Below the pieces are notes generated by a model. That model saw only the letters and a program-made list of their open reading frames with translations, did no database searches and was not told where the DNA came from. Source: Nemertoderma westbladi (Eukaryota > Animalia > Xenacoelomorpha). Taken from it: 49,150 nucleotides of DNA. This document shows positions 3,747-41,042 of the stretch, in pieces (the stretch's first letter is position 1; every line of letters begins with the position of its first letter). The stretch is from assembly GCA_032718475.1 (NCBI GenBank), contig JAUCBJ010003922.1, positions 1-49,150 of the forward strand. The letters are read 5' to 3'. Made by a program: the position numbers and the translations under genes.

Positions 3747-5864
3747 TACACCAAAACACGTTCTCACACACGGATAAACTATTTTATGTGTTTTCACACA
3801 CGTATAAACTATTTTAGGTGTTCTCAAACACGTATACACTAATTTAGGTATTCTTACGCATTTATGCACTATTTTAGGTGTTCTTACACACGTATACACC
3901 ATTTTAGTTGTTCTTACACACGTATACCATATTTGGTGTGTTTTCACACGTGTATAAACTATTTTAGGTGTCTTACATATGTATACACTATTTTAAGTGT
4001 TCTTACACATGTATACACAATTTTAGTTGTTCTTACACACGTATACCATATTTGGTGTGTTCTCACACACGTATACACTTTTTTAGTTGTTCTTACACAC
4101 GTTAACCATATTCGGTGTGTTCTCACACACGTTTACACTATTTTAGCTGTACTCACTCACGTATACCATATTTGGCGTGTTCTCACACACGTGTACACTA
4201 TTTTAGGTGTTCTTACACACGTATACCTTATTTGGTGTGTTCTCACACACGTTTACACTATTTTAGCTGTACTCTCTCACGTATACCATATTTGGTGTGT
4301 TCTCACACACGTTTACACTATTTTAGCTGTTCTCACACACGTATACACTATTTTAGATGACTTACACATGTATACACAATTTTAGGTGTTCTTACACACG
4401 TATATACCATTTTAGTTGTTCTTACACACGTATACCATATTTGATGTGTTCTCACACACGTGTACACTATTTTAGGTGTTCTTACACACGTATACCATAT
4501 TTGGTGTGTTCTCACACACGTTTACACTATTTTAGCTGTTCTCACACACTTATACACTATTTCAGATGTCTTACACACGTATACACTATTTTTGGTGTTC
4601 GTACACACGTATATACCATTATAGTTATTCTTACACACATATACCATATTTTAGGAGTTCTCACACACGTTTACACTATTTTAGCTGTACTCACACACGT
4701 ATACCATATTTGGTGTGTTCTCACACACGTTTACATTATTTTAGCTGTTCTCACACACGTATACACTATTTTAGATGTCTTACACATGTATACACTATTT
4801 TAGGTGTTCGTACACACGTATATACCATTATAGTTATTCTTACACACATATACCATATCTTAGGAGTTCTCACACACGTTTACACTATTTTAGCTGTCCT
4901 CACACACTTATACACTATTTTAGATGTCTTCACATGTATAATATTTTATGTGTTCTCACCAACGTATACACCATTTTATGTGTTCTCACACACGCATAAG
5001 CTATTTTAGGTGTTCTCAAACACTTATACACTATTTTAGGTATTCTTACGCATTTGTGCACTATTTTAGATGTTCTTACACATGTTTACACCATTTTAGT
5101 TGTTCTTAAACACGTATACCATATTTGATGTGTTCTCACACACGTGTACACTATTTTAGGTGTTCTTACACACGTATACACTATTTTAGGTGTTCTTACA
5201 CACGTATACACAATTTTAGGTGTTCTTACACACGTATACCATATTTTATGTGTTCTCACACACGATACACTATTATAGGTTTACTTACACACGTATACAC
5301 TATTTTAGGTGTTCTTACACACGTATGCCATATGTGGTGTGTTCTCACACACGTATATACTATTTTAGGTGTTCTCACATACGTATATACTATTTTAGGT
5401 GTTCTCACACACGTATACCATATTTTTGGTGTTCTTACACACGTATACCATATTTTATGTGTTCTCACACACGTATACACTATTTTAGGTTTTCTTACAC
5501 ACGTATACACTAGTTTAGGTGTTCTTACACACGTATACCATATGTGGTGTGTTCTCACACACGTATATACTATTTTAGGTGTTCTCACACACGTATACGC
5601 AATGTTAGGTGTTCTTACACACGTATACCATATTTTATGTGTTCTCACACACGTATACACTATTTTAGGTTTTCTTACACACGTATACACTATTTTAGGT
5701 GTTCTCACACACGTATACCATATGTGGTGTGTTCTCACACACGTATATAATATTTTAGGTGTTTTCACACACGTATATACTATTTTAGGTGTTCTCACAC
5801 ACGTATACCATATTTTAGGTGTTCTCACACACGTATACCATATTTCAGGTGTCCTCACACACGT
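3747..5864 (+). repeat. 30-bp minisatellite (~70 units) derived from the Epac acceptor site plus exon start
   Basis: Unit TATTTTAG|GTGTTCTCACACACGTATACAC/CA. The last unit is the real acceptor TATTTCAG|GTGTCCTCACACACGT. Period is exactly 30 bp from about 5290 to 5864 and more degenerate upstream. Confidence 0.95.
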
Positions 5865-6006
5865 TTCCAAAGAGTTTGAATTTCGGGACGATTATCTGTT
5901 TTACCGCTTCCGGGAGGATGACCAAGGTTTGGGAAGTATACCGGGGGGTTTGGAAAGAAAAGATGCAGAAGATTCACTAGAGGATACGTTGCAGATACTC
6001 AGTCAG
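5849..6006 (+). CDS. RAPGEF4: Epac exon (end of DEP domain)
   Basis: tttcag|GT...CAG|gtaagg; encodes (G)VLTHVSKEFEFRDDYLFYRFREDD...LEDTLQILSQ; 158 nt, phase 1 to 0. Confidence 0.9.
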
Positions 6007-9000
6007 GTAAGGGATAGATTAAAGATACTGTACTTAATTATAGATACTCAGTCAGGTAAGGGATACATTAAAGATAATGTACTTAATTATAGATACTCAG
6101 TCAGGTAAGGGATACATTAAAGATACTGTACTTAATTATAGATACTCAGTCAGGTAAGGGATACATTAAAGATACTGTACTTAATTATAGATACTCAGTC
6201 AGGTAAGGGATACATTAAAGATACTGTACTTTATTATAGATACTCAGTCAGGTAAGGGATACATTAAAGATAATGTACTTAATTATAGATACTCAGTCAG
6301 GTAAGGGATACATTAAAGATAATGTACTTAATTATAGATACTCAGTCAGGTAAGGGATACATTATAGATACTGTACTTAATTATAGATACTCAGTCAGGT
6401 AAGGGATACATTAAAGATACTGTACTTAATTATAGATACTCAGTCAGGTAAGGGATACATTAAAGATACTGTACTTAATTATAGATACTCAGTCAGGTAA
6501 GAGATACATTAAAGATAATGTACTTAATTATAGATACTCAGTCAGGTAAGGGATACATTAAAGATACTGTACTTAATTATAGATAATCAGTCAGGTAAGG
6601 GATACATTAAAGATACTGTACTTAATTATAGATACTCAGTCAGGTAAGAGATACATTAAAGATAATGTACTTAATTATAGATACTCAGTCAGGTAAGGGA
6701 TACATTAAAGATACTGTACTTAATTATAGATAATCAGTCAGGTAAGGGATACATTAAAGATACTGTACTTAATTATAGATACTCAGTCAGGTAAGAGATA
6801 CATTAAAGATAATGTACTTAATTATAGATACTCAGTCAGGTAAGGGATACATTAAAGATACTGTACTTAATTATAGATACTCAGTCAGGTAAGGGATACA
6901 TTAAAGATACTGTACTTAATTATAGATACTCAGTCAGGTAAGGGATACATTAAAGATACTGTACTTAATTATAGATACTCAGTCAGGTAAGGGATACATT
7001 AAAGATACTGTACTTAATTATAGATACTCAGTCAGGTAAGGGATACATTAAAGATACTGTACTTTATTATAGATACTCAGTCAGGTAAGAGATAGATTAA
7101 AGATACTGTACTAAATTATAGATACTCAGTCAGGTAAGAGATAGATTAAAGATACTGTACTTAATTATATATACTCAGTCAGGTAAGAGATAGATTAAAG
7201 ATACTGTACTTAATTATAGATACTCAGTCAGGTAAGAGATACATTAAAGATACTGTACTTAATTATAGATACTCAGTCAGGTAAGGGATACATTAAAGAT
7301 AATGTACTTAATTATAGATACTCAGTCAGGTAAGAGATACATTAAAGATACTGTACTTAATTATAGATACTCAGTCAGGTAAGAGATACATTAAAGATAC
7401 TGTACTTAATTATAGATACTCAGTCAGGTAAGAGATACATTAAAGATACTGTACTTAATTATAGATACTCAGTCAGGTAAGAGATACATTAAAGATACTG
7501 TACTTAATTATAGATACTCAGTCAGGTAAGAGATACATTAAAGATACTGTACTTAATTATAGATACTCAGTCAGGTAAGAGATACATTAAAGATACTGTA
7601 CTTAATTATAGATACTCAGTCAGGTAAGAGATACATTAAAGATACTGTACTTAATTATAGATACTCAGTCAGGTAAGAGATACATTAAAGATACTGTACT
7701 TAATTATAGATACTCAGTCAGGTAAGAGATACATTAAAGATACTGGACTTAATTATAGATACTCAGTCAGGTAAGAGATACATTAAAGATAGTGTACTTA
7801 ATTATAGATACTCAGTCAGGTAAGGGATACATTAAAGATACTGTACTTAATTATAGATACTCAGTCAGGTAAGAGATAGATTAAAGATACTGTACTTAAT
7901 TATAGATACTCAGTCAGGTAAGAGATAGATTAAAGATACTGTACTTAATTATAGATACTCAGTCAGGTAAGAGATACATTAAAGATACTGTACTTAATTA
8001 TAGATACTCAGTCAGGTAAGAGATACATTAAAGATACTGTACTTAATTATAGATACTCAGTCAGGTAAGAGATACATTAAAGATACTGGTACTTAATTAT
8101 AGATACTCAGTCAGGTAAGAGATACATTAAAGATACTGTACTTAATTATAGATACTCAGTCAGGTAAGAGATAGATTAAAGATACTGGTACTTAATTATA
8201 GATACTCAGTCAGGTAAGGGATACATTAAAGATAATGTACTTAATTATAGATACTCAGTCAGGTAAGGGATACATTAAAGATACTGTACTTAATTATAGA
8301 TACTCAGTCAGGTAAGGGATACATTAAAGATAATGTACTTAATTATAGATACTCAGTCAGGTAAGGGATACATTAAAGATACTGTACTTAATTATAGATA
8401 CTCAGTCAGGTAAGGGATACATTAAAGATACTGTACTTAATTATAGATACTCAGTCAGGTAAGGGATACATTAAAGATAGCCTACTGTACTTAATTATAG
8501 ATACTCAGTCAGGTAAGGGATACATTAAAGATAATGTACTTAATTATAGATACTCAGTCAGGTAAGGGATACATTAAAGATACTGTACTTTATTATAGAT
8601 ACTCAGTCAGGTAAGGGATACATTAAAGATACTGTACTTAATTATAGATACTCGCAGTCAGGTAAGAGATAGATTAAAGATACTGTACTTAATTATAGAT
8701 ACTCAGTCAGGTAAGAGATAGATTAAAGATACTGTACTTAATTATAGATACTCAGTCAGGTAAGGGATACATTATAGATACTGTACTTAATTATAGATAC
8801 TCAGTCAGGTAAGGGATACATTAAAGATAATGTACTTAATTATAGATACTCAGTCAGGTAAGGGATACATTAAAGATACTGTACTTAATTATAGATACTC
8901 AGTCAGGTAAGGGATACATTAAAGATACTGTACTTAATTATAGATACTCAGTCAGGTAAGGGATACATTAAAGATACTGTACTTAATTATAGATACTCAG

Positions 9001-12000
9001 TCAGGTAAGGGATACATTAAAGATACTGTACTTAATTATAGATACTCAGTCAGGTAAGGGATACATTAAAGATACTGTACTTAATTATAGATACTCAGTC
9101 AGGTAAGGGATACATTAAAGATACTGTACTTAATTATAGATACTCAGTCAGGTAAGGGATACATTAAAGATACTGTACTTAATTATAGATACTCAGTCAG
9201 GTAAGGGATACATTAAAGATACTGTACTTAATTATAGATACTCAGTCAGGTAAGGGATACATTAAAGATACTGTACTTAATTATAGATACTCAGTCAGGT
9301 AAGGGATACATTAAAGATACTGTACTTAATTATAGATACTCAGTCAGGTAAGGGATACATTAAAGATACTGTACTTAATTATAGATACTCAGTCAGGTAA
9401 GGGATACATTAAAGATACTGTACTTAATTATAGATACTCAGTCAGGTAAGGGATACATTAAAGATACTGTACTTAATTATAGATACTCAGTCAGGTAAGG
9501 GATACATTAAAGATACTGTACTTAATTATAGATACTCAGTCAGGTAAGGGATACATTAAAGATACTGTACTTAATTATAGATACTCAGTCAGGTAAGGGA
9601 TACATTAAAGATACTGTACTTAATTATAGATACTCAGTCAGGTAAGGGATACATTAAAGATACTGTACTTAATTATAGATACTCAGTCAGGTAAGGGATA
9701 CATTAAAGATACTGTACTTAATTATAGATACTCAGTCAGGTAAGGGATACATTAAAGATACTGTACTTAATTATAGATACTCAGTCAGGTAAGGGATACA
9801 TTAAAGATACTGTACTTAATTATAGATACTCAGTCAGGTAAGGGATACATTAAAGATACTGTACTTAATTATAGATACTCAGTCAGGTAAGGGATACATT
9901 AAAGATACTGTACTTAATTATAGATACTCAGTCAGGTAAGGGATACATTAAAGATACTGTACTTAATTATAGATACTCAGTCAGGTAAGGGATACATTAA
10001 AGATACTGTACTTAATTATAGATACTCAGTCAGGTAAGGGATACATTAAAGATACTGTACTTAATTATAGATACTCAGTCAGGTAAGGGATACATTAAAG
10101 ATACTGTACTTAATTATAGATACTCAGTCAGGTAAGGGATACATTAAAGATACTGTACTTAATTATAGATACTCAGTCAGGTAAGGGATACATTAAAGAT
10201 ACTGTACTTAATTATAGATACTCAGTCAGGTAAGGGATACATTAAAGATACTGTACTTAATTATAGATACTCAGTCAGGTAAGGGATACATTAAAGATAC
10301 TGTACTTAATTATAGATACTCAGTCAGGTAAGGGATACATTAAAGATACTGTACTTAATTATAGATACTCAGTCAGGTAAGGGATACATTAAAGATACTG
10401 TACTTAATTATAGATACTCAGTCAGGTAAGGGATACATTAAAGATACTGTACTTAATTATAGATACTCAGTCAGGTAAGGGATACATTAAAGATACTGTA
10501 CTTAATTATAGATACTCAGTCAGGTAAGGGATACATTAAAGATACTGTACTTAATTATAGATACTCAGTCAGGTAAGGGATACATTAAAGATACTGTACT
10601 TAATTATAGATACTCAGTCAGGTAAGGGATACATTAAAGATACTGTACTTAATTATAGATACTCAGTCAGGTAAGGGATACATTAAAGATACTGTACTTA
10701 ATTATAGATACTCAGTCAGGTAAGGGATACATTAAAGATACTGTACTTAATTATAGATACTCAGTCAGGTAAGGGATACATTAAAGATACTGTACTTAAT
10801 TATAGATACTCAGTCAGGTAAGGGATACATTAAAGATACTGTACTTAATTATAGATACTCAGTCAGGTAAGGGATACATTAAAGATACTGTACTTAATTA
10901 TAGATACTCAGTCAGGTAAGGGATACATTAAAGATACTGTACTTAATTATAGATACTCAGTCAGGTAAGGGATACATTAAAGATACTGTACTTAATTATA
11001 GATACTCAGTCAGGTAAGGGATACATTAAAGATACTGTACTTAATTATAGATACTCAGTCAGGTAAGGGATACATTAAAGATACTGTACTTAATTATAGA
11101 TACTCAGTCAGGTAAGGGATACATTAAAGATACTGTACTTAATTATAGATACTCAGTCAGGTAAGGGATACATTAAAGATACTGTACTTAATTATAGATA
11201 CTCAGTCAGGTAAGGGATACATTAAAGATACTGTACTTAATTATAGATACTCAGTCAGGTAAGGGATACATTAAAGATACTGTACTTAATTATAGATACT
11301 CAGTCAGGTAAGGGATACATTAAAGATACTGTACTTAATTATAGATACTCAGTCAGGTAAGGGATACATTAAAGATACTGTACTTAATTATAGATACTCA
11401 GTCAGGTAAGGGATACATTAAAGATACTGTACTTAATTATAGATACTCAGTCAGGTAAGGGATACATTAAAGATACTGTACTTAATTATAGATACTCAGT
11501 CAGGTAAGGGATACATTAAAGATACTGTACTTAATTATAGATACTCAGTCAGGTAAGGGATACATTAAAGATACTGTACTTAATTATAGATACTCAGTCA
11601 GGTAAGGGATACATTAAAGATACTGTACTTAATTATAGATACTCAGTCAGGTAAGGGATACATTAAAGATACTGTACTTAATTATAGATACTCAGTCAGG
11701 TAAGGGATACATTAAAGATACTGTACTTAATTATAGATACTCAGTCAGGTAAGGGATACATTAAAGATACTGTACTTAATTATAGATACTCAGTCAGGTA
11801 AGGGATACATTAAAGATACTGTACTTAATTATAGATACTCAGTCAGGTAAGGGATACATTAAAGATAGCCTCTGTACTTAATTATAGATACTCAGTCAGG
11901 TAAGGGATACATTAAAGATACTGTACTTAATTATAGATACTCAGTCAGGTAAGGGATACATTAAAGATACTGTACTTAATTATAGATACTCAGTCAGGTA

Positions 12001-15000
12001 AGGGATACATTAAAGATACTGTACTTAATTATAGATACTCAGTCAGGTAAGGGATACATTAAAGATACTGTACTTAATTATAGATACTCAGTCAGGTAAG
12101 GGATACATTAAAGATACTGTACTTAATTATAGATACTCAGTCAGGTAAGGGATACATTAAAGATACTGTACTTAATTATAGATACTCAGTCAGGTAAGGG
12201 ATACATTAAAGATACTGTACTTAATTATAGATACTCAGTCAGGTAAGGGATACATTAAAGATACTGTACTTAATTATAGATACTCAGTCAGGTAAGGGAT
12301 ACATTAAAGATACTGTACTTAATTATAGATACTCAGTCAGGTAAGGGATACATTAAAGATACTGTACTTAATTATAGATACTCAGTCAGGTAAGGGATAC
12401 ATTAAAGATACTGTACTTAATTATAGATACTCAGTCAGGTAAGGGATACATTAAAGATACTGTACTTAATTATAGATACTCAGTCAGGTAAGGGATACAT
12501 TAAAGATACTGTACTTAATTATAGATACTCAGTCAGGTAAGGGATACATTAAAGATACTGTACTTAATTATAGATACTCAGTCAGGTAAGGGATACATTA
12601 AAGATACTGTACTTAATTATAGATACTCAGTCAGGTAAGGGATACATTAAAGATACTGTACTTAATTATAGATACTCAGTCAGGTAAGGGATACATTAAA
12701 GATACTGTACTTAATTATAGATACTCAGTCAGGTAAGGGATACATTAAAGATACTGTACTTAATTATAGATACTCAGTCAGGTAAGGGATACATTAAAGA
12801 TACTGTACTTAATTATAGATACTCAGTCAGGTAAGGGATACATTAAAGATACTGTACTTAATTATAGATACTCAGTCAGGTAAGGGATACATTAAAGATA
12901 CTGTACTTAATTATAGATACTCAGTCAGGTAAGGGATACATTAAAGATACTGTACTTAATTATAGATACTCAGTCAGGTAAGGGATACATTAAAGATACT
13001 GTACTTAATTATAGATACTCAGTCAGGTAAGGGATACATTAAAGATACTGTACTTAATTATAGATACTCAGTCAGGTAAGGGATACATTAAAGATACTGT
13101 ACTTAATTATAGATACTCAGTCAGGTAAGGGATACATTAAAGATACTGTACTTAATTATAGATACTCAGTCAGGTAAGGGATACATTAAAGATACTGTAC
13201 TTAATTATAGATACTCAGTCAGGTAAGGGATACATTAAAGATACTGTACTTAATTATAGATACTCAGTCAGGTAAGGGATACATTAAAGATACTGTACTT
13301 AATTATAGATACTCAGTCAGGTAAGGGATACATTAAAGATACTGTACTTAATTATAGATACTCAGTCAGGTAAGGGATACATTAAAGATACTGTACTTAA
13401 TTATAGATACTCAGTCAGGTAAGGGATACATTAAAGATACTGTACTTAATTATAGATACTCAGTCAGGTAAGGGATACATTAAAGATACTGTACTTAATT
13501 ATAGATACTCAGTCAGGTAAGGGATACATTAAAGATACTGTACTTAATTATAGATACTCAGTCAGGTAAGGGATACATTAAAGATACTGTACTTAATTAT
13601 AGATACTCAGTCAGGTAAGGGATACATTAAAGATACTGTACTTAATTATAGATACTCAGTCAGGTAAGGGATACATTAAAGATACTGTACTTAATTATAG
13701 ATACTCAGTCAGGTAAGGGATACATTAAAGATACTGTACTTAATTATAGATACTCAGTCAGGTAAGGGATACATTAAAGATACTGTACTTAATTATAGAT
13801 ACTCAGTCAGGTAAGGGATACATTAAAGATACTGTACTTAATTATAGATACTCAGTCAGGTAAGGGATACATTAAAGATACTGTACTTAATTATAGATAC
13901 TCAGTCAGGTAAGGGATACATTAAAGATACTGTACTTAATTATAGATACTCAGTCAGGTAAGGGATACATTACAGATACTGTACTTAATTATAGATACTC
14001 AGTCAGGTAAGGGATACATTACAGATACTGTACTTAATTATAGATACTCAGTCAGGTAAGGGATACATTACAGATACTGTACTTAATTATAGATACTCAG
14101 TCAGGTAAGAGATACATTAAAGATAGCCTACTGTACTTAATTATAGATACTCAGTCAGGTAAGGGATACATTACAGATACTGTACTTAATTATAGATACT
14201 CAGTCAGGTAAGGGATACATTAAAGATACTGTACTTAATTATAGATACTCAGTCAGGTAAGGGATACATTAAAGATACTGTACTTAATTATAGATACTCA
14301 GTCAGGTAAGGGATACATTAAAGATACTGTACTTAATTATAGATACTCAGTCAGGTAAGGGATACATTAAAGATACTGTACTTAATTATAGATACTCAGT
14401 CAGGTAAGGGATACATTACAGATACTGTACTTAATTATAGATACTCAGTCAGGTAAGGGATACATTACAGATACTGTACTTAATTATAGATACTCAGTCA
14501 GGTAAGGGATACATTAAAGATACTGTACTTAATTATAGATACTCAGTCAGGTAAGGGATACATTAAAGATAGCCTACTGTACTTAATTATAGATACTCAG
14601 TCAGGTAAGGGATACATTAAAGATACTGTACTTAATTATAGATACTCAGTCAGGTAAGAGATACATTAAAGATACTGTACTTAATTATAGATACTCAGTC
14701 AGGTAAGGGATACATTAAAGATACTGTACTTAATTATAGATACTCAGTCAGGTAAGAGATACATTAAAGATACTGTACTTAATTATAGATACTCAGTCAG
14801 GTAAGGGATACATTAAAGATACTGTACTTAATTATAGATACTCAGTCAGGTAAGGGATACATTAAAGATAGCCTACTGTACTTAATTATAGATACTCAGT
14901 CAGGTAAGGGATACATTAAAGATACTGTACTTAATTATAGATACTCAGTCAGGTAAGAGATACATTAAAGATAATGTACTTAATTATAGATACTCAGTCA

Positions 15001-18000
15001 GGTAAGGGATACATTAAAGATACTGTACTTAATTATAGATACTCAGTCAGGTAAGAGATACATTAAAGATACTGTACTTAATTATAGATACTCAGTCAGG
15101 TAAGGGATACATTAAAGATACTGTACTTAATTATATATACTCAGTCAGGTAAGGGATACATTAAAGATAGCCTACTGTACTTAATTATAGATACTCAGTC
15201 AGGTAAGGGATACATTAAAGATACTGTACTTAATTATAGATACTCAGTCAGGTAAGAGATACATTAAAGATACTGTACTTAATTATAGATACTCAGTCAG
15301 GTAAGGGATACATTAAAGATACTGTACTTAATTATAGATACTCAGTCAGGTAAGGGATACATTAAAGATACTGTACTTAATTATAGATACTCAGTCAGGT
15401 AAGGGATACATTAAAGATACTGTACTTAATTATAGATACTCAGTCAGGTAAGGGATACATTAAAGATACTGTACTTAATTATAGGTACTCAGTCAGGTAA
15501 GGGAAACATTAAAGATACTGTACTTAATTATAGATACTCAGTCAGGTAAGGGATACATTAAAGATACTGTACTTAATTATAGATACTCAGTCAGGTAAGG
15601 GATACATTAAAGATACTGTACTTAATTATAGATACTCAGTCAGGTAAGGGATACTTTAAAGATACTGTACTTAATTATAGATATTCAGTCAGGTAAGGGA
15701 TACATTAAAGATACTGGTACTTAATTATAGATACTCAGTCAGGTAAGGGATACATTAAAGATACTGTACTTAATTATAGATACTCAGTCAGGTAAGGGAT
15801 ACATTAAAGATACTGTACTTAATTATACATACTCAGTCAGGTAAGGGATACATTAAAGATACTGTACTTAATTATAGATACTCAGTCAGGTAAGGGATAC
15901 TTTAAAGATACTGTACTTAATTATAGATACTCAGTCAGGTAAGGGATACATTAAAGATACTGTACTTAATTATAGATACTCAGTCAGGTAAGGGATACAT
16001 TAAAGATACTGTACTTAATTATAGATACTCAGTCAGGTAAGGGATACATTAAAGATACTGTACTTAATTATAGATACTCAGTCAGGTAAGGGATACTTTA
16101 AAGATACTGTACTTAATTATAGATATTCAGTCAGGTAAGGGATACATTAAAGATACTGGTACTTAATTATAGATACTCAGTCAGGTAAGAGATAGATTAA
16201 AGATACTGTACTTAATTATAGATACTCAGTGAGGTAAGGGATACATTAAAGATACTGTACTTAATTATAGATACTCAGTCAGGTAAGGGATACATTAAAG
16301 ATACTGTACTTAATTATAGATACTCAGTCAGGTAAGGGATACATTAAAGATACTGTACTTAATTATAGATACTCAGTCAGGTAAGGGATACTTTAAAGAT
16401 ACTGTACTTAATTATAGATATTCAGTCAGGTAAGGGATACATTAAAGATACTGGTACTTAATTATAGATACTCAGTCAGGTAATAGATAGATTAAAGATA
16501 CTGTACTTAATTATAGATACTCAGTGAGGTAAGGGATACATTAAAGATACTGTACTTAATTATAGATACTCAGTCAGGTAAGGGATACATTAAAGATAGC
16601 CTGCTGTACTTAATTATAGATACTCAGTCAGGTAAGGGATACATTAAAGATACTGTACTTAATTATAGATACTCAGTCAGGTAAGGATACATTAAAGATA
16701 CTGTACTTAATTATAGATACTCAGTCAGGTAAGGGATACATTAAAGATACTGTACTTAATTATAGATACTCAGTCAGGTAAGGGATACTTTAAAGATACT
16801 GTACTTAATTATAGATATTCAGTCAGGTAAGGGATACATTAAAGATACTGGTACTTAATTATAGATACTCAGTCAGGTAAGAGATACATTAAAGATACTG
16901 TACTTAATTATAGATACTCAGTGAGGTAAGGGATACATTAAAGATACTGTACTTAATTATAGATACTCAGTCAGGTAAGGGATACATTAAAGATTCTGTA
17001 CTTAATTATAGATACTCAGTCAGGTAAGAGATACATTAAAGATTCTGTACTTAATTATAGATACTCAGTCAGGTAAGAGATACATTAAAGATACTGTACT
17101 TAATTATAGATACTCAGTCAGGTAAGAGATACATTAAAGATACTGTACTTAATTATAGATACTCAGTCAGGTAAGGGATACATTAAAGATTCTGTACTTA
17201 ATTATAGATACTCAGTCAGGTAAGGGATACATTAAAGATTCTGTACTTAATTATAGATACTCAGTCAGGTAAGAGATACATTAAAGATACTGTACTTAAT
17301 TATAGATACTCAGTCAGGTAAGAGATACATTAAAGATACTGTACTTAATTATAGATACTCAGTCAGGTAAGGGATACATTAAAGATACTGTACTTAATTA
17401 TAGATACTCAGTCAGGTAAGAGATACATTAAAGATACTGTACTTAATTATAGATACTCAGTCAGGTAAGAGATAGATTAAAGATACTGTACTTAATTATA
17501 GATACTCAGTCAGGTAAGGGATACATTAAAGATAGCCTGCTGTACTTAATTATAGATACTCAGTCAGGTAAGGGATACATTAAAGATACTGTACTTAATT
17601 ATAGATACTCAGTCAGGTAAGGGATACATTAAAGATACTGTACTTAATTATAAATACTCAGTCAGGTAAGGGATACATTAAAGATAGCCTGCTGTACTTA
17701 ATTATAGATACTCAGTCAGGTAAGGGATACATTAAAGATACTGTACTTAATTATAGATACTCAGTCAGGTAAGGGATACATTAAAGATACTGTACTTAAT
17801 TATAGATACTCAGTCAGGTAAGGGATAGATTAAAGATACTGTACTTAATTATAGATACTCAGTCAGGTAAGAGATAGATTAAAGATAATGTACTTAATTA
17901 TAGATACTCAGTCAGGTAAGGGATACATTAAAGATACTGTACTTAATTATAGATACTCAGTCAGGTAAGGGATACATTAAAGATACTGTACTTAATTATA

Positions 18001-26891: not shown

Positions 26892-29800
26892 GTAAGTGTT
26901 CCTAACTACATCTCGGTAAGTGTTCCTAACTACATCTCGGTAAGTGTTCCTAACTACATCTCGGTAAGTGTTCCTAACTACATCTCGGTAAGTGTTCCTA
27001 ACTACATCTCGGTAAGTGTTCCTAACTACATCTCGGTAAGTGTTCCTAACTACATCTCGGTAAGTGTTCCTAACTACATCTCGGTAAGTGTTCCTAACTA
27101 CATCTCGGTAAGTGTTCCTAACTACATACATCTTGGTAAGTGTTCCTAACTACATCTCGGTAAGTGTTCCTAACTACATCTCGGTAAGTGTTCCTAACTA
27201 CATCTCGGTAAGTGTTCCTAACTACATCTCGGTAAGTGTTCCTAACTACATCTCGGTAAGTGTTCCTAACTACATCTCGGTAAGTGTTCCTAACTACATC
27301 TCGGTAAGTGTTCCTAACTACATCTCGGTAAGTGTTCCTAACTACATCTCGGTAAGTGTTCCTAACTACATCTCGGTAAGTGTTCCTAACTACATCTCGG
27401 TAAGTGTTCCTAACTACATCTCGGTAAGTGTTCCTAACTATATACATCTTGGTAAGTGTTCCTAACTACATCTCGGTAAGTGTTCCTAACTACATCTCGG
27501 TAAGTGTTCCTAACTACATCTCGGTAAGTGTTCCTAACTACATACATCTTGGTAAGTGTTCCTAACTACATCTCGGTAAGTGTTCCTAACTACATCTCGG
27601 TAAGTGTTCCTAACTACATCTCGGTAAGTGTTCCTAACTACATCTCGGTAAGTGTTCCTAACTACATCTCGGTAAGTGTTCCTAACTACATCTCGGTAAG
27701 TGTTCCTAACTACATCTCGGTAAGTGTTCCTAACTACATCTCGGTAAGTGACCCTAACTGTGTGCATCTCGGTAAGTGTTCCTAAATATATACATCCTGT
27801 ATGAATGTTCCTAACTACATCTCGGTAAGTGTTCCTAACTATATACATCTTGGTAAGTGTTCCTAACTACATCTCGGTAAGTGTTCCTAACTACATCTCG
27901 GTAAGTGTTCCTAACTACATCTCGGTAAGTGTTCCTAACTACATCTCGGTAAGTGTTCCTAACTACATCTCGGTAAGTGTTCCTAACTACATCTCGGTAA
28001 GTGTTCCTAACTACATCTCGGTAAGTGTTCCTAACTACATCTCGGTAAGTGACCCTAACTACATCTCGGTAAGTGTTCCTAACTACATCTCGGTAAGTGT
28101 TCCTAACTACATCTCGGTAAGTGTTCCTAACTACATCTCGGTAAGTGTTCCTAACTACATCTCGGTAAGTGTTCCTAACTACATCTCGGTAAGTGTTCCT
28201 AACTACATCTCGGTAAGTGTTCCTAACTACATCTCGGTAAGTGTTCCTAACTATATACATCTTGGTAAGTGTTCCTAACTACATCTCGGTAAGTGACCCT
28301 AACTACATCTCGGTAAGTGTTCCTAACTACATCTCGGTAAGTGTTCCTAACTACATCTCTGTAAGTGTTCCTAACTACATCTCGGTAAGTGTTCCTAACT
28401 ACATCTCGGTAAGTGTTCCTAACTACATCTCGGTAAGTGTTCCTAACTACATCTCGGTAAGTGTTCCTAACTACATCTCGGTAAGTGTTCCTAACTACAT
28501 CTCGGTAAGTGTTCCTAACTACATCTCGGTAAGTGTTCCTAACTACATCTCGGTAAGTGTTCCTAACTACATCTCGGTAAGTGTTCCTAACTACATCTCG
28601 GTAAGTGTTCCTAACTACATCTCGGTAAGTGTTCCTAACTACATCTCGGTAAGTGTTCCTAACTATATACATTTTGGTAAGTGTTCCTAACTACATCTCG
28701 GTAAGTGACCCTAACTACATCTCGGAAAGTGTTCCTAACTACATCTCGGTAAGTGTTCCTAACTACATCTCGGTAAGTGTTCCTAACTACATCTCGGTAA
28801 GTGTTCCTAACTACATCTCGGTAAGTGTTCCTAACTACATCTCGGTAAGTGTTCCTAACTACATCTCGGTAAGTGTTCCTAACTACATCTCGGTAAGTGT
28901 TCCTAACTATATACATCTTGGTAAGTGTTCCTAACTACATCTCGGTAAGTGACCCTAACTACATCTCGGTAAGTGTTCCTAACTACATCTCGGTAAGTGT
29001 TCCTAACTACATCTCGGTAAGTGTTCCTAACTACATCTCGGTAAGTGTTCCTAACTACATCTCGGTAAGTGTTCCTAACTACATCTCGGTAAGTGTTCCT
29101 AACTACATCTCGGTAAGTGTTCCTAACTACATCTCGGTAAGTGTTCCTAACTACATCTCGGTAAGTGTTCCTAACTACATCTCGGTAAGTGTTCCTAACT
29201 ACATCTCGGTAAGTGTTCCTAACTACATCTCGGTAAGTGTTCCTAACTACATCTCGGTAAGTGTTCCTAACTACATCTCGGTAAGTGTTCCTAACTACAT
29301 CTCGGTAAGTGTTCCTAACTACATCTCGGTAAGTGACCCTAACTGTGTGCATCTCGGTAAGTGTTCCTAAATATATACATCCTGTGTGAATGTTCCTAAA
29401 CTACATCTCGGTAAGTGTTCCTAACTATATATCCTGTATGAATGTTCCTAAACTACATCTCGGTAAGTGTTCCTAACTACATCTCGGTAAGTGTTCCTAA
29501 CTACATCTCGGTAAGTGTTCCTAACTACATCTCGGTAAGTGACCCTATCTGTGTGCATCTCGGTAAGTGTTTCTAACTATAAACATCCTGTGTGAATTTT
29601 CCTAACTACATCTTGGTAAATGTTCCTGGCCCATGTGAAGAATACCAGACTTTCTGCCGTTATATTTCACTTTGCAGTTACCCCCATGTGAAGAATACCA
29701 GGTTTTCACCAAAACCACAAGTTACAGAAGGACTGAATCTAACCAAAACAATAAATGTATTAGTATATGTACAGGTTATAAGACAGAAATAAGCGCTATA

Positions 29801-32237
29801 AAACACTTAATGAAGATAAATAAAAAAAAATAAAAAATCTTGATATATAAAATTCCAATAAAAAGTCGACCGAAAAGTGAAATCCTGGTATTCTTCACAT
29901 GGGCGATGTTCCTAACTATATACATCCTGTATGAATGTTCCTAACTACATCGTGGTAAGTGTTCCTAACTATATACATCTTGGTAAGTGTTCCTAACTAT
30001 ATCGCGGTAAGTGTTCCTAACTATGTACATCTCTGAGTTTTCCTAACTACATCTCGGTAAGTGTTCCTAACTACATCTCGGTAAGTGTTCCTAACTATAT
30101 ACATCTTGGTAAGTGTTCCTAACTATATACTTCATGTGTGAATGTTCCTAACTACATCTCGGTAAGTGTTCCTAACTATATACATCTTGGTAAGTGTTCC
30201 TAACTATATACTTCATGTGTGAATGTTCCTAACTACATCTCGGTAAGTGTTCCTAACTACATCTCGGTAAGTGTTCCTAACTATATACATCTTGGTAAGT
30301 GTTCCTAACTATATACTTCATGTGTGAATGTTCCTAACTACATCTCGGTAAGTGTTCCTAACTACATCTCGGTAAGTGTTCCTAACTATATACATCTTGG
30401 TAAGTGTTCCTAACTATATACTTCATGTGTGAATGTTCCTAACTACATCTCGGTAAGTGTTCCTAACTATATACATCTTGGTAAGTGTTCCTAACTATAT
30501 ACTTCATGTGTGAATGTTCCTAACTACATCTCGGTAAGTGTTCCTAACTACATCTCGGTAAGTGTTCCTAACTATATACATCTTGGTAAGTGTTCCTAAC
30601 TATATACTTCATGTGTGAATGTTCCTAACTACATCTCGGTAAATGTTCCTAACTACATCTCGGTAAGTGTTCCTAACTATATACATCTTGGTAAGTGTTC
30701 CTAACTACATCTCGGTAAGTGTTCCTAACTATATACATCTTGGTAAGTGTTCCTAACTACATCTGGGTAAGTGTTCCTAACTATATACATCTTGGTAAGT
30801 GTTCCTAACTACATCTGGGTAAGTGTTCCTAACTATATACATCTTGGTAAGTGTTCCTAACTATATATTCATCCTGTGTGAATGTTCCTAAACTACATCT
30901 CGGTAAGTGTTTCTAACTATATACATCTTGGTAATTGTTCCTAACTATATACATCCTGTGTGAATGTTCCTAACTACATCTCAGTAAGTGTTCCTAACTA
31001 TGTACATTTTGGTAAGTGTTCCTAACTATATACATCCTGTGTGAATGTTCCTAACTACATCTCGGTAAGTGTTCCTAACTATGCACATCTCTGAGTTTTC
31101 CTAACTACATCTCGGTAAGTGTTCCTAACTACATCTCGGTAAGTGTTCCTAACTACATCTCGGTAAGTGTTCCTAACTATACATCTTGGGAAGTGTTCCT
31201 AAGTATATACATCTTAACATCTTGGTAAGTGTTAACTATGTACATCTCTCTGGATGTTCCTAACTACATCTCTGTATGTGTTACTAACTAACTATATATA
31301 CATCTCTCTGAATGTTCCTAACTACATCTCTGTATGTGTTACTAACTAACTATATATACATCTCTCTGGATGTTCCTAACTACATCTCTGTATGTGTTAC
31401 TAACTAACTATATATACATCTCTCTGAATGTTCCTAACTATCTCGGTATGTGTTACTAACTATATATACATCTCTCTGAATGTTCCTAACTACATCTCGG
31501 TATGTGTTACTAACTAACTATATATACATCTCTCTGAATGTTCCTAACTACATCTCGGTATGTGTTACTAACTATATATACATCTCTCTGAATGTTCCTA
31601 AAACTACATCTCGGTATGTGTTACTAACTATATATACATCTCTCTGAATGTTCCTAACTATCTCGGTATGTGTTACTAACTATATATACATCTCTCTGAA
31701 TGTTCCTAACTATATCTCTGTATGTGTTACTAACTAACTATATATACATCTCTCTGGATGTTCCTAACTACATCTCTGTATGTGTTACTAACTAACTATA
31801 TATACATCTCTCTGAATGTTCCTAACTATCTCGGTATGTGTTACTAACTATATATACATCTCTCTGAATGTTCCTAACTACATCTCGGTATGTGTTACTA
31901 ACTAACTATATATACATCTCTCTGAATGTTCCTAACTACATCTCGGTATGTGTTACTAACTATATATACATCTCTCTGAATGTTCCTAAAACTACATCTC
32001 GGTATGTGTTACTAACTATATATACATCTCTCGGAATGTTCCTAACTACATCTCGGTAAGTGTTCCTAACTATACATCTTGGGAAGTGTTCCTAAGTATA
32101 TACATCTTAACATCTTGGTAAGTGTTAACTATATACATCTCTCTGAATGTTCCTAACTACATCTCGGTATGTGTTACTAACTATATATACATCTCTCTGA
32201 ATGTTCCTAACTACATCTCGGTATGTGTTACTAACTA
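26872..32237 (+). repeat. 24-bp minisatellite derived from Epac exon end plus donor site, degenerating distally into 28-bp and composite units
   Basis: Unit GTGTTCCTAACTACATCTCG|GTAA equals the last 20 exon nt plus the donor. About 110 near-perfect units to ~29560, then variant and higher-order units. Confidence 0.96.
29628..29905. mobile_element. 278-bp MITE with 20-bp TIRs and 8-bp TSD inserted in the 24-bp array
   Basis: GCCCATGTGAAGAATACCAG (29629) pairs with CTGGTATTCTTCACATGGGC (ends 29904). ATGTTCCT is duplicated at 29620-29627 and 29906-29913. An extra internal TIR copy lies at ~29683. Confidence 0.85.
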
Positions 32238-32389: not shown

Positions 32390-32617
32390 ACTGTGCTCTT
32401 GGATTATGTCCTACTATCGCGCGGAAACTGCTATCAGCCCTACCCCAGACTACTGTCTCGCATGTAAACTTCGCGTCGTCCAATTCACCATGCACTGGAG
32501 TTCAATCGTTCCTTACAACTTCAGCGACGAGGCCGAACTTGGTCGGTTTCTCGACAAGGTTTACTCCATGGTTGTTAATGACTCTAGAACGTTCCCTACA
32601 CTAACAGACAGCGTCAG
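32390..32617 (+). CDS. RAPGEF4: Epac exon (REM domain)
   Basis: tttgccag|A...GTCAG|gttagg; (R)LCSWIMSYYRAETAISPTPDYCLACKLRVVQFTMHWSS...FLDKVYSMVVNDSRTFPTLTDSV(R); 228 nt, phase 2 to 2. Confidence 0.85.
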
Positions 32618-33144: not shown

Positions 33145-33301
33145 AATGATGGAAACACAAATCAATGGACTGAAAAACTGGCCATTCAACCGAAACACGC
33201 AACTCGGTAAGAAGAAAGCGAATATGTCGGGAATAATGAGAGGCACCGAGGATTATTCAGGTCGTCTACCAATCCAACATAACGACGAATTCGTGTTTAA
33301 G
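33145..33301 (+). CDS. RAPGEF4: Epac exon (REM-RA linker)
   Basis: cctgcag|A...TTTAAG|gttagc; (R)MMETQINGLKNW...RLPIQHNDEFVFK (cf. Epac2 RQPIRGSDEVLFK); 157 nt, phase 2 to 0. Confidence 0.85.
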
Positions 33302-36300
33302 GTTAGCTGATAGGGTCACAGACGGACTATAGCAAGGTGTTTAAGGTTAGCTGACAGGGTCACAGACGGACTATAGCAAGGTGTTTAAGGTTAGCTGACA
33401 GGGTCACAGACGGACTATAGCAAGGTGTTTAAGGTTAGCTGACAGGGTCACAGACGGACTATAGCAAGGTGTTTAAGGTTAGCTGACAGGGTCACAGACG
33501 GACTATGGCAAGGTTTTTAAGGTTAGCTGACAGGGTCACAGACAGGGTCACAGACGGACTATAGCAAGGTGTTTAAGGTTAGCTGACAGGGTCAGAGACG
33601 GACTATAGCAAGGTGTTTAAGGTTAGCTGACAGGGTCACAGACGGACTATGGCAAGGTGTTTAAGGTTAGCTGACAGGGTCACAGACAGGGTCACAGACG
33701 GACTATAGCAAGGTGTTTAAGGTTAGCTGACAGGGTCACAGACGGACTATAGCAAGGTGTTTAAGGTTAGCTGACAGGGTCACAGACGGACTATGGCAAG
33801 GTGTTTAAGGTTAGCTGACAGGGTCACAGACAGGGTCACATACGGACTATAGCAAGGTGTTTAAGGTTGGCTGACAGGGTCACAGACGGACTATGGGAAG
33901 GTGTTTAAGGTTAGCTGCGACAGGGTCACAGACGGACTATGGCAAGGTGTTTAAGGTTAGCTGACAGGGTCACAGACTGACTATGGCAAGGTGTTTAAGG
34001 TTAGCTGACAGGGTCACAGACGGACTATAGCAAGGTGTTAAAAGTTAGCTGAAAGGGTCACAGACGGACTATACTATAGCAAGGTGTTTAAGGTTAGCTG
34101 CGACAGGGTCACAGACGGACTATAGCAAGGTGTTTAAGGTTAGCTGACAGGGTCACAGACAGGGTCACAGACGGACTATGGCAAGGTGTTTAAGGTTAGC
34201 TGACAGGGTCACAGACGGACTATGGGAAGGTGTTTAAGGTTAGCTGCGACAGGGTCACAGACGGACTATAGCAAGGTGTTTAAGGTTAGCTGACAGGGTC
34301 ACAGACGGACTATAGCAAGGTGTTTAAGGTTAGCTGACAGGGTCACAGACGGACTATGGCAAGGTGTTTAAGGTTAGCTGACAGGGTCACAGACTGACTA
34401 TGGCAAGATGTTTAAGGTTAGCTGACAGGGTCACAGACGGACTATAGCAAGGTGTTTAAGGTTAGCTGACCGGGTCACAGACAGGGTCACAGACGGACTA
34501 TAGCAAGGTGTTTAAGGTTAGCTGACAGGGTCACAGACGGACTATGGCAAGGTGTTTAAGGTTAGCTGACCGTGTCACAGACAGGGTCACAGACGGACTA
34601 TAGCAAGGTGTTTAAGGTTAGCTGACAGGGTCACAGACGGACTATGGCAAGGTGTTTAAGGTTAGCTGACAGGGTCACAGACTGACTATAGCAAGGTGTT
34701 TAAGGTTAGCTGACAGGGTCACAGACGGACTATATAGCAAGGTGTTTAAGGTTAGCTGACAGGGTCACAGACAGGGTCACAGACGGACTATAGCAAGGTG
34801 TTTAAGGTTAGCTGACAGGGTCACAGACGGACTATGGCAAGGTGTTTAAGGTTAGCTGACAGGGTCACAGACTGACTATAGCAAGGTGTTTAAGGTTAGC
34901 TGACAGGGTCACGGACGGACTATAGCAAGGTGTTTAAGGTTAGCTGACAAGGTCACAGACGGACTATAGCAAGGTGTTTAAGGTTAGCTGACAGGGTCAC
35001 AGACGGACTATAGCAAGGTGTTTAAGGTTAGCTGATAGGGTCACAGACGGACTATAGCAAGGTGTTTAAGGTTAGCTGACAGGGTCACAGACGGACTATA
35101 GCAAGGTGTTTAAGGTTAGCTGACAGGGTCACAGACAGGGTCACAGACGGACTATAGCAAGGTGTTTAAGGTTAGCTGACAGGGTCACAGACGGACTATG
35201 GCAAGGTGTTTAAGGTTAGCTGACAGGGTCACAGACTGACTATAGCAAGGTGTTTAAGGTTAGCTGATAGGGTCACAGACGGACTATAGCAAGGTGTTTA
35301 AGGTTAGCTGATAGGGTCACAGACGGACTATATCAAGGTGTTTAAGGTTAGCTGACAGGGTCACAGACGGACTATAGCAAGGTGTTTAAGGTTAGCTGAC
35401 AGGGTCACAGACGGACTATAGCAAGGTGTTTAAGGTTAGCTGACAGGGTCACAGACGGACTATAGCAAGGTGTTTAAGGTTAGCTGACAGGGTCACAGAC
35501 GGACTATGGCAAGGTTTTTAAGGTTCGCTGACAGGGTCACAGACAGGGTCACAGACGGACTATAGCAAGGTGTTTAAGGTTAGCTGACAGGGTCAGAGAC
35601 GGACTATAGCAAGGTGTTTAAGGTTAGCTGACAGGGTCACAGACGGACTATGGCAAGGTGTTTAAGGTTAGCTGACAGGGTCACAGACAGGGTCACAGAC
35701 GGACTATAGCAAGGTGTTTAAGGTTAGCTGACAGGGTCACAGACGGACTATAGCAAGGTGTTTAAGGTTAGCTGACAGGGTCACAGACGGACTATGGCAA
35801 GGTGTTTAAGGTTAGCTGACAGGGTCACAGACAGGGTCACATACGGACTATAGCAAGGTGTTTAAGGTTGGCTGACAGGGTCACAGACGGACTATGGGAA
35901 GGTGTTTAAGGTTAGCTGCGACAGGGTCACAGACGGACTATGGCAAGGTGTTTAAGGTTAGCTGACAGGGTCACAGACTGACTATGGCAAGGTGTTTAAG
36001 GTTAGCTGACAGGGTCACAGACGGACTATAGCAAGGTGTTAAAAGTTAGCTGAAAGGGTCACAGACGGACTATACTATAGCAAGGTGTTTAAGGTTAGCT
36101 GCGACAGGGTCACAGACGGACTATAGCAAGGTGTTTAAGGTTAGCTGACAGGGTCACAGACGGACTATAGCAAGGTGTTTAAGGTTAGCTGACAGGGTCA
36201 CAGACGGACTATAGCAAGGTGTTTAAGGTTAGCTGACAGGGTCACAGACGGACTATGGCAAGGTGTTTAAGGTTAGCTGACAGGGTCACAGACGGACTAT

Positions 36301-39300
36301 GGGAAGGTGTTTAAGGTTAGCTGCGACAGGGTCACAGACGGACTATAGCAAGGTGTTTAAGGTTAGCTGACAGGGTCACAGACGGACTATAGCAAGGTGT
36401 TTAAGGTTAGCTGACAGGGTCACAGACGGACTATGGCAAGGTGTTTAAGGTTAGCTGACAGGGTCACAGACTGACTATGGCAAGATGTTTAAGGTTAGCT
36501 GACAGGGTCACAGACGGACTATAGCAAGGTGTTTAAGGTTAGCTGACCGTGTCACAGACAGGGTCACAGACGGACTATAGCAAGGTGTTTAAGGTTAGCT
36601 GACAGGGTCACAGACGGACTATGGCAAGGTGTTTAAGGTTAGCTGACAGGGTCACAGACTGACTATAGCAAGGTGTTTAAGGTTAGCTGACAGGGTCACA
36701 GACGGACTATATAGCAAGGTGTTTAAGGTTAGCTGACAGGGTCACAGACAGGGTCACAGACGGACTATAGCAAGGTGTTTAAGGTTAGCTGACAGGGTCA
36801 CAGACGGACTATGGCAAGGTGTTTAAGGTTAGCTGACAGGGTCACAGACTGACTATAGCAAGGTGTTTAAGGTTAGCTGACAGGGTCACGGAAGGACTAT
36901 AGCAAGGTGTTTAAGGTTAGCTGACAAGGTCACAGACGGACTATAGCAAGGTGTTTAAGGTTAGCTGACAGGGTCACAGACGGACTATGGCAAGGTGTTT
37001 AAGGTTAGCTGACAGGGTCACAGACTGACTATAGCAAGGTGTTTAAGGTTAGCTGACAGGGTCACAGACTGACTATAGCAATGTGTTTAAGGTTAGCTGA
37101 CAGGGTCACAGACGGACTATGGCAAGGTGTTTAAGGTTAGCTGACAGGGTCACAGACGGACTATAGCAAGGTGTTTAAGGTTAGCTGACAGGGTCACAGA
37201 CGGACTATGGCAAGGTGTTTAAGGTTAGCTGACAGGGTCACAGACTGACTATAGCAAGGTGTTTAAGGTTAGCTGACAGGGTCACAGACGGACTATGGCA
37301 AGGTGTTTAAGGTTAGCTGACAGGGTCACAGACTGACTATAGCAAGGTGTTTAAGGTTAGCTGACAGGGTCACAGACTGACTATAGCAAGTGTTTAAGGT
37401 TAGCTGACGGGTCACAGACAGGGTCACAGACGGACTATGGCAAGGTGTTTAAGGTTAGCTGACAGGGTCACAGACGGACTATGGGAAGGTGTTAAAGGTT
37501 AGCTGAAAGGGTCACAGACTGACTATAGCAAGGTGTTTAAGGTTAGCTGACAGGGTCACAGACGGACTATGGGAAGGTGTTAAAGGTTAGCTGAAAGGGT
37601 CACAGACTGACTATAGCAAGGTGTTTAAGGTTAGCTGACAGGGTCACAGACGGACTATGGGAAGGTGTTAAAGGTTAGCTGAAAGGGTCACAGACTGACT
37701 ATAGCAAGGTGTTTAAGGTTAGCTGACAGGGTCACAGACGGACTATAGCAAGGTGTTTAAGGTTAGCTGACAGGGTCACAGACGGACTATGGCAAGGTGT
37801 TTAAGGTTAGCTGACAGGGTCACAGACTGACTATAGCAAGGTGTTTAAGGTTAGCTGACAGGGTCACAGACGGACTATGGCAAGGTGTTTAAGGTTAGCT
37901 GACAGGGTCACAGACTGACTATAGCAAGGTGTTTAAGGTTAGCTGACAGGGTCACAGACTGACTATAGCAAGTGTTTAAGGTTAGCTGACGGGTCACAGA
38001 CAGGGTCACAGACGGACTATGGCAAGGTGTTTAAGGTTAGCTGACAGGGTCACAGACGGACTATGGGAAGGTGTTAAAGGTTAGCTGAAAGGGTCACAGA
38101 CTGACTATAGCAAGGTGTTTAAGGTTAGCTGACAGGGTCACAGACGGACTATGGGAATGTGTTAAAGGTTAGCTGACAGGGTCACAGACGGACTATGGCA
38201 AGGTGTTTAAGGTTAGCTGACAGGGTCACAGACTGACTATAGCAAGGTGTTTAAGGTTAGCTGACAGGGTCACAGACGGACTATGGCAAGGTGTTTAAGG
38301 TTAGCTGACAGGGTCACAGACGGACTATAGCAAGGTGTTTAAGGTTAGCTGACAGGGTCACAGACGGACTATGGCAAGGTGTTTAAGGTTAGCTGACAGG
38401 GTCACAGGCAGACTATAGCAAGGTGTTTAAGGTTAGCTGACAGTGTCACAGACGGACTATAGCAAGGTGTTAAAGGTTAGCTGACAGGGTCACAGACGGA
38501 CTATAGCAAGGTGTTTAAGGTTAGCTGACAGGGTCACAGGCGGACTATAGCAAGGTGTTTAAGGTTAGCTGACAGGGTCACAGACGGACTATAGCAAGGT
38601 GTTTAAGGTTAGCTGACCGGGTCACAGACAGGGTCACAGACGGACTATGGCAAGGTGTTTAAGGTTAGCTGACAGGGTCACAGACGGACTATACTATAGC
38701 AAGGTGTTTAAGGTTAGCTGCGACAGGGTCACAGACGGACTATAGCAAGGTGTTTAAGGTTAGCTGACAGTGTCACAGTCGGACTATAGCAAGGTGTTAA
38801 AGGTTAGCTGACAGGGTCACAGACGGACTATGGCAAGGTGTTTAAGGTTAGCTGACAGGGTCACAGGCGGACTATAGCAAGGTGTTTAAGGTTAGCTGAC
38901 AGGGTCACAGACGGACTATAGCAAGGTGTTAAAGGTTAGCTGACAGGGTCACAGACGGACTATAGCAAGGTGTTTAAGGTTAGCTGACAGGGTCACAGGC
39001 GGACTATAGCAAGGTGTTTAAGGTTAGCTGACAGGGTCACAGACGGACTATAGCAAGGTGATTAAGGTTAGCTGACCGGGTCACAGACAGGGTCACAGAC
39101 GGACTATGGCAAGGTGTTTAAGGTTAGCTGACAGGGTCACAGACGGGGTCACATACGGACTATAGCAAGGTGATTAAGGTTAGCTGACCGGGTCACAGAC
39201 AGGGTCACAGACGGACTATGGCAAGGTGTTTAAGGTTAGCTGACAGGGTCACAGACGGACTATACTATAGCAAGGTGTTTAAGGTTAGCTGCGACAGGGT

Positions 39301-41042
39301 CACAGACGGACTATAGCAAGGTGTTTAAGGTTAGCTGACAGTGTCACAGACGGACTATAGCAAGGTGTTAAAGGTTAGCTGACAGGGTCACAGACGGACT
39401 ATAGCAAGGTGTTTAAGGTTAGCTGACAGGGTCACAGACGGACTATAGCAAGGTGTTTAAGGTTAGCTGACAGGGTCACAGACGGATTATAGCAAGGTGT
39501 TTAAGGTTAGCTGCGACAGGGTCACAGACGGACTATAGCAAGGTGTTTAAGGTTAGCTGACAGTGTCACAGACGGACTATAGCAAGGTGTTAAAGGTTAG
39601 CTGACAGGGTCACAGACGGACTATAGCAAGGTGTTTAAGGTTAGCTGACAGGGTCACAGACGGACTATGGCAAGGTGTTTAAGGTTAGCTGACAGGGTCA
39701 CAGACTGACTATAGCAAGGTGTTTAAGGTTAGCTGACAGGGTCACAGACGGACTATGGCAAGGTGTTTAAGGTTAGCTGACAGGGTCACAGACTGACTAT
39801 AGCAAGGTGTTTAAGGTTAGCTGACAGGGTCACAGACTGACTATAGCAAGTGTTTAAGGTTAGCTGACAGGGTCACAGACAGGGTCACAGACGGACTATG
39901 GCAAGGTGTTTAAGGTTAGCTGACAGGGTCACAGACGGACTATGGGAAGGTGTTAAAGGTTAGCTGAAAGGGTCACAGACTGACTATAGCAAGGTGTTTA
40001 AGGTTAGCTGACAGGGTCACAGACGGACTATGGGAATGTGTTAAAGGTTAGCTGACAGGGTCACAGACGGACTATGGCAAGGTGTTTAAGGTTAGCTGAC
40101 AGGGTCACAGACTGACTATAGCAATGTGTTTAAGGTTAGCTGACAGGGTCACAGACGGACTATGGCAAGGTGTTTAAGGTTAGCTGACAGGGTCACAGAC
40201 GGACTATAGCAAGGTGTTTAAGGTTAGCTGACAGGGTCACAGACGGACTATGGCAAGGTGTTTAAGGTTAGCTGACAGGGTCACAGGCAGACTATAGCAA
40301 GGTGTTTAAGGTTAGCTGACAGTGTCACAGACGGACTATAGCAAGGTGTTAAAGGTTAGCTGACAGGGTCACAGACGGACTATAGCAAGGTGTTTAAGGT
40401 TAGCTGACAGGGTCACAGGCGGACTATAGCAAGGTGTTTAAGGTTAGCTGACAGGGTCACAGACGGACTATAGCAAGGTGTTTAAGGTTAGCTGACCGGG
40501 TCACAGACAGGGTCACAGACGGACTATGGCAAGGTGTTTAAGGTTAGCTGACAGGGTCACAGACGGACTATACTATAGCAAGGTGTTTAAGGTTAGCTGC
40601 GACAGGGTCACAGACGGACTATAGCAAGGTGTTTAAGGTTAGCTGACAGTGTCACAGACGGACTATAGCAAGGTGTTAAAGGTTAGCTGACAGGGTCACA
40701 GACGGACTATGGCAAGGTGTTTAAGGTTAGCTGACAGGGTCACAGGCAGACTATAGCAAGGTGTTTAAGGTTAGCTGACAGTGTCACAGACGGACTATAG
40801 CAAGGTGTTAAAGGTTAGCTGACAGGGTCACAGACGGACTATAGCAAGGTGTTTAAGGTTAGCTGACAGGGTCACAGACGGACTATAGCAAGGTGTTTAA
40901 GGTTAGCTGACAGGGTCACAGACGGATTATAGCAAGGTGTTTAAGGTTAGCTGACACGGTCACAGACGGACTATAGCAAGGTGTTTAAGGTTAGCTGACA
41001 GGGTCACAGACGGACTATAGCAAGGTGTTTAAGGTTAGCTGA
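33293..41042 (+). repeat. 44-bp minisatellite (~170 units, ~7.7 kb) derived from Epac exon end plus donor site
   Basis: Unit GTGTTTAAG|GTTAGCTGACAGGGTCACAGACGGACTATAGCAAG. The first unit overlaps the last 9 exon nt. Variants include a 12-bp internal duplication (GACAGGGTCACA). Confidence 0.97.

Follow-up and report, generated by a model that had tools for sequence, protein, structure and literature searches.

Four large tandem arrays spanning splice junctions of an Epac gene in Nemertoderma westbladi, compared with amphioxus 'mirages'

Tandem repeats that span exon-intron boundaries are known from amphioxus as "mirages." In the excerpted accounts on which we draw, they occur in the globin genes BflGb6/BflGb9 and in Adh3, lie on both sides and leave splicing undisturbed, and the mechanism of their origin was called unclear (PMC3087553). 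A troponin C mirage and two arrays in lancelet PGBD5 have also been described (PMC3902484), and reported units measure 10-160 bp. In humans, intron 7 of F7 carries a 37-bp VNTR, for which the excerpted report gives the most-upstream donor as the one chosen (PMC1557585). A 25-bp VNTR in intron 18 of ABCA7 is reported to reach 10,678 bp, about 427 units, enlarging the intron eightfold (PMC5954066; review PMC11095487), and use of its second donor gives a premature stop subject to nonsense-mediated decay (PMC5954066). Finally, internal tandem repeats at boundaries within human segmental duplications are described as giving young paralogues new introns or alternative forms (PMC2812944). The original prediction held that the arrays we report here could be an undescribed route to larger introns; with the amphioxus mirages, F7 and ABCA7 on record, boundary-spanning repeats cannot be called new. 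We refer below to the whole 49,150-nt stretch of DNA that was analysed as the window.

Host gene, arrays and neighbouring features

The host gene is Epac (RAPGEF4). Eleven GT-AG exons on the forward strand, from 5849 to 48760, join into one stop-free frame of 696 amino acids, and the last coding exon lies outside the window, beyond 48760. Among 10 exon translations given to Pfam (the 96-bp exon was left out), 7 matched cNMP-binding, RasGEF_N, RA and RasGEF pieces, in that order, and RAPGEF4/Epac proteins were the best named matches in a sequence search with one exon. With 14 RAPGEF4-like homologues, chosen among 120 matches listed, the joined protein shares 52-58% identity, a range that is alike across all bilaterian groups compared. 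Its alignment with these 14 has no gaps at any of the four array junctions, and the repeat units contain pre-existing intron sequence; both observations bear on whether tandem genomic duplication could have created a new intron here. Both the frame and the homologues bear out the prediction that the units copy one acceptor and three donors of Epac: the gene and its junctions had been named correctly.

Tandem Repeats Finder (TRF) returned four large tandem arrays in the window, with units of 30, 49, 24 and 44 bp, all in forward orientation. The first two flank exon 5849-6006, which, as predicted, has both of its boundaries amplified. Array 1 (3747-5863; TRF 3760-5864, period 30, 70.5 copies) lies on the acceptor side and parses into about 71 full 30-bp units, each made of 15 intron and 15 exon nucleotides; its final unit carries the used acceptor at 5849, and with 79% matches it looks the oldest. 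Array 2 (5993-19740; TRF period 49, 279.4 copies) lies on the donor side, with 279 units of 49 bp and a partial final unit at 97% matches, each unit comprising 14 exon and 35 intron nucleotides around the donor at 6006. Exons 20713-20947, where the cNMP-binding domain starts, 21051-21249, also cNMP-binding, and 26519-26614 carry no array. Array 3 (26872-32237; TRF period 24 plus higher-order units) is seeded by the donor of the RasGEF_N exon 26751-26891; its about 210 units are pure 24-mers of 20 exon and 4 intron nucleotides near the exon, and 22-34-bp variants in distal higher-order blocks. Exon 32390-32617 is again without an array, and the donor of exon 33145-33301, which was assigned from the frame and the alignment with homologues, seeds array 4 (33293-41042; TRF period 44, 169.4 copies), with 169 units of 9 exon and 35 intron nucleotides, a partial final unit and block duplications of about 1.9-2.0 kb. 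The remaining exons (41434-41657, 43070-43319, 44295-44524 and 48587-48760), which encode RA and RasGEF domains, have no junction arrays.

Counted from 3747, the four arrays sum to 28,969 bp, or 59% of the window, in keeping with the anticipated 29 kb. Array 2 makes up 93% of its 14.7-kb intron, array 3 97% of a 5.5-kb intron and array 4 95% of an 8.1-kb intron, so that only 972, 152 and 391 bp of these three introns lie outside the array. "Gigantism," the word used beforehand, overstates introns of 5-15 kb. Array-free introns of the same gene include ones of 103, 136 and 527 bp.

Each unit is an unspliced exon-intron junction that lies next to its source in the same orientation. In all four arrays the splice junction sits within the unit rather than on its border, and the unit breakpoints are scattered 4-35 nt from the splice sites. 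The arrays had been described as seeded exactly on splice junctions; this stands insofar as the unit spans the junction, but not insofar as "exactly" places the junction at the unit's edge. When the units of these four arrays and of a smaller free array in the same gene were compared with one another, 10 of 10 pairs scored within the shuffled background. The units are therefore unrelated and their origins independent, as had been predicted, and a common origin of the array units is ruled out.

Several further features of the window deserve mention. An intronless gene for the Elongator subunit Elp2 (23356-25695, forward strand, 779 amino acids, best matches 38-41% identical) is nested in the Epac intron 21250-26518 on the same strand and is covered in run X4 by a separate contig of 2,449 nt; it is possibly a retrocopy, or else an intron-less original. 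LINE-type reverse-transcriptase remnants lie at 1556-3082 (forward), at 44973-46150 and 47190-48300 (reverse) and at 21387-23073, the last with very high depth in DNA runs, and RVT_1 was matched at 1637-3079 and 44973-45830. An element of about 1 kb at about 46150-47190, which seems to have landed in a LINE remnant, is bounded by terminal inverted repeats and carries 12-bp sub-terminal repeats; it is likely a non-autonomous DNA transposon. A tRNA scan of the window found no tRNA genes.

Splice sites used at the array junctions

Run X4 is labelled "DNA?", and we treated it as RNA because a 3,857-nt contig in it skips four GT-AG introns. This contig covers 5847-6006 without difference. Its loose end after 6006 is the exon at 20713, and the one before 5847 reads as a conserved upstream exon; hence splicing takes the last acceptor in array 1 and the first donor in array 2. 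The X4 piece over the RasGEF_N exon ends at 26891, where array 3 has its first donor. The exon-adjacent native site is thus the one used at all three junctions checked, of four (one RNA contig from one study, and contigs drop rare forms).

The intronic position of the extra copies follows from this first-donor or last-acceptor choice and is not separate evidence. The prediction is right in describing arrays that extend into the intron and leave the exon intact. As evidence of targeting this layout fails, because any duplication spanning a junction would look the same once splicing settles on the site next to the exon.

Origin and growth of the arrays

Inside the arrays, the same variant units come back in blocks that are nested and differ in length, and strings of variants are repeated. 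Exact matches within array 4 measure 635, 532 and 454 bp (offsets 2001, 1879 and 582), array 3 has one of 319 bp (offset 388), and array 2 has a run of 61 identical units. Nested recurrence of variant units is the pattern expected from repeated unequal exchange, and these block duplications, together with local homogeneity, point to turnover by unequal exchange and concerted evolution within the clusters. Homogeneity is higher beside the exon in array 1 (0.86 versus 0.76) and array 3 (0.94-0.96 versus 0.68-0.84), while arrays 2 and 4 have no such exon-side polarity. Where the seed is readable, its microhomology is 0-1 nt.

Some details of array structure can be added. Some distal units of array 3, between 29300 and 31000, also include a short stretch that matches the exon immediately 5' of the sequence in the 24-bp unit; this may be a trace of renewed copying from the exon or of an older, longer unit. 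The final unit of array 4 has the same minority variant as the first (5 of about 170 units). In arrays 2 and 4, the terminal partial unit (19721-19740; 41025-41045) stops 6-10 nt past a copy of the donor. Since both arrays end in this way, a 20-bp target-site duplication with filler was considered as their seed and set aside: truncation at a later time would look the same, and a dispersed repeat of high depth adjoins array 2.

Based on these findings, we propose that the arrays are probably four mirage-type minisatellites that arose by local DNA duplication, survived at the junctions of short introns, grew by unequal exchange and were anchored by the exon. The seed would have been a DNA duplication of 24-49 bp straddling the exon edge. 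Seeds spanning a junction could survive, while those internal to an exon would be purged; if introns were short, a large share of the survivable seeds would span a junction. Unequal crossover or exchange between sister chromatids may then have enlarged the arrays, with homogenisation acting locally, as the nested blocks suggest. Their presence is likely tolerated because splicing stays with the site next to the exon, as it does at the three of the four junctions covered by the spliced contig. Finally, anchoring on the exon might lengthen the life of an array, one end of which cannot decay or be deleted, and in this way junction seeds might become the large ones; this is a guess on our part and the weakest step of the scheme. 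Besides the spliced contig, the block repeats and the array-free short introns of the gene are in favor of the proposal. So are the greater homogeneity of arrays 1 and 3 beside the exon and the fact that amphioxus mirages and the F7 VNTR are reported with a like layout and no harm to splicing. The lack of polarity in arrays 2 and 4 and the scant microhomology count against it.

Whether the junctions hold more arrays than chance would give them depends on the size of the introns. In our null model, arrays were collapsed to one unit and exon-internal seeds excluded, and a seed then spans a junction with a probability of 0.03-0.07. With present non-coding lengths, P for 4 or more of 5 arrays at junctions is 3.7e-5, which upholds the predicted local excess and counts against our proposal; when hand-chosen stretches resembling mobile elements are masked, P is 9e-5 to 3e-4 (4 of 4). 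If introns were 100 or 200 bp long at seeding, P (4 or more of 5) becomes 0.27 or 0.04, as our proposal would have it. The excess weakens to P = 0.015 when the 14 non-coding tandem repeats with a period of at least 10 are all counted along with the four arrays. These 14, where only one small array had been predicted elsewhere, are the free intronic array (41972-42549, no strand assigned; 578 bp, 53 bp x 11, off any junction and resembling sub-repeats in its own 5' flank) and 13 others. The local excess is thus real under present intron sizes and fades with short ancestral introns, in a window that was picked after the fact for showing the pattern.

The same figures bear on the main alternative, possible though on balance doubtful, in which amplification itself is biased to junctions because exon-intron boundaries are hot spots of DNA breaks, of recombination ends or of repair coupled to transcription or splicing (R-loops). 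Large arrays sit at 4 of 22 junctions as against one free array of 11 copies, and the values of 4e-5 to 3e-4 at present sizes speak for such a bias, as does the exon-side polarity of arrays 1 and 3. A sharper signal comes from size: the junction arrays are the four largest of the 18 tandem repeats (rank P = 3e-4), a ranking that plain neutrality does not explain and that tells against our proposal; any bias would accordingly show in growth or survival, and not demonstrably in seeding. On the other side stand the scattered distances of the breakpoints, the fading of the excess with short introns or with all 18 repeats counted, the post hoc choice of the window and the other 18 junctions, at which there are no two-copy seeds (a count of low power, the control rate being 2.8%). 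A broader form of this idea, which we entertain only tentatively and think unlikely, would make boundaries genome-wide hot spots of amplification in this lineage, with growth to hundreds of copies coupled to transcription or recombination. Introns and the genome would then have grown in large part through mirage arrays rather than transposons, with first-donor choice and nonsense-mediated decay acting as the buffer. A search of the open-licence literature found no genome-wide test of enrichment of junction arrays, which is weak evidence that none exists.

It is improbable that selection keeps the splice-signal arrays as a regulatory device, whether as decoys, for recursive splicing, as an isoform ladder or for the timing of expression; the anatomy of the units does not support this candidate of the original prediction. 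The native donor 9-mer does persist in 225, 116 and 165 copies in the donor arrays, and CAG/GT occurs 276 times in array 2. Of the 554 decoy donors that match the native motif (274 + 116 + 164), however, none keeps the frame open in silico with the 11-exon model. Because every counted decoy leads to a stop, nonsense-mediated decay would hide any slips; these stops agree with the duplication scheme that we prefer. Array 1 has 48 upstream YAG sites, of which 13 would add in-frame, stop-free repeats of 10 residues, which could be of use to a device of this kind. The frame also stays open through the 19 units upstream of the exon (5279-5848). The single RNA contig shows native sites alone and none of these 13 acceptors in use. 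In addition, the acceptor A of array 1 matches in 82% and the G in 72% of its 71 units, compared with about 90-97% at most positions (units are not independent), and the CAG of the real site is present in 6% of units. The acceptor letters rank with the less conserved positions and so lend no support to selection on the signals. The excerpted ABCA7 report, in which the length of the VNTR alters splicing, counts in favor of such a role (PMC5954066).

It is very unlikely that junction RNA, lariats or cDNA were copied by rolling circle and put back into the source locus, even though the 61 identical units of array 2 are compatible with one burst: the units join exon to intron and are neither exon-exon joins nor intron-only lariat circles, and their anatomy gives this predicted candidate no support. 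RNA-based or spliceosome-cut origins fit poorly with unit edges 4-35 nt off the splice sites, with unspliced units and with nested blocks of several periods per array.

An assembly artefact, by which the 61-unit run could be inflated, is just as hard to credit, given that units of arrays 1 and 2 are present in runs X1, X2 and X3 (three short-read runs, two samples), that an X2 contig bridges the exon and both arrays (5816-6022) without difference, that variant joints of array 3 are found in X1, and that each array holds 37-59 distinct unit types. A 79-nt array 2 contig in X1 has a depth of 2,309 against 12.8-24.9 in single-copy neighbours, a 93-180-fold excess where the assembly predicts 199, although depth is not a copy number. 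Since this is so, and since X1 or X2 may be the source of the assembly, the short-read contigs, which hold units of arrays 1-3, support existence and high copy and not exact length. Run X8 yielded no piece matching the window.

Two observations from the reads may be noted in passing. At 5812, a contig found in X1 and X2 (two samples) joins an array 1 unit to about 90 nt resembling the LINE-like piece near 22490-22520. This stretch is absent from array 1 in the window; the contig represents either a LINE insertion in another array allele or a unit copied elsewhere. Between 19773 and 26901, long pieces of single-copy sequence in three samples, from three studies (e.g., 3,936, 2,892 and 2,449 nt), are identical to the window, from either very low diversity or a single line, and one of the samples may be the assembly source.

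Comparison with known systems

The locus offers an extreme natural test case of splice-site choice, with one real donor facing up to 274 near-identical decoys, and in array 1 a ladder of acceptors whose use would preserve the frame. It also bears on how mirage arrays arise. If a genome-wide, length-matched excess were true, gene structure would be tied to the birth or survival of repeats, adding a route of intron growth.

The Epac arrays have several of the features by which mirages are recognized. Their unit spans a true boundary in four of four cases, with RNA for three; it measures 24-49 bp, inside the reported range; and spare splice signals coexist with normal mRNA at the three junctions tested, in one contig. 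As in amphioxus, there are several per gene. The copy numbers differ: 2-7 are quoted for the globin and PGBD5 mirages in the excerpted reports, as against about 70-280 here, where three introns are 93-97% array and more than half of the window is repeat. F7, in the excerpt cited, is alike in that the first unit spans the exon-intron junction and the most upstream donor alone is used; it differs in having 5-9 copies in a single array, on the donor side only. ABCA7 likewise repeats a donor in every unit, but its unit, as excerpted, starts at GT and has no exon sequence, and its single, GC-rich array has a measurable effect on exon skipping. The repeats in human segmental duplications share with Epac a minisatellite growth at boundaries that changes gene structure. 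From what the excerpt relates of them they differ in outcome, since Epac appears to keep old, conserved junctions and no new intron is seen in it. The Epac arrays thus belong to a known type of repeat, within which they are remarkable for their size and density.
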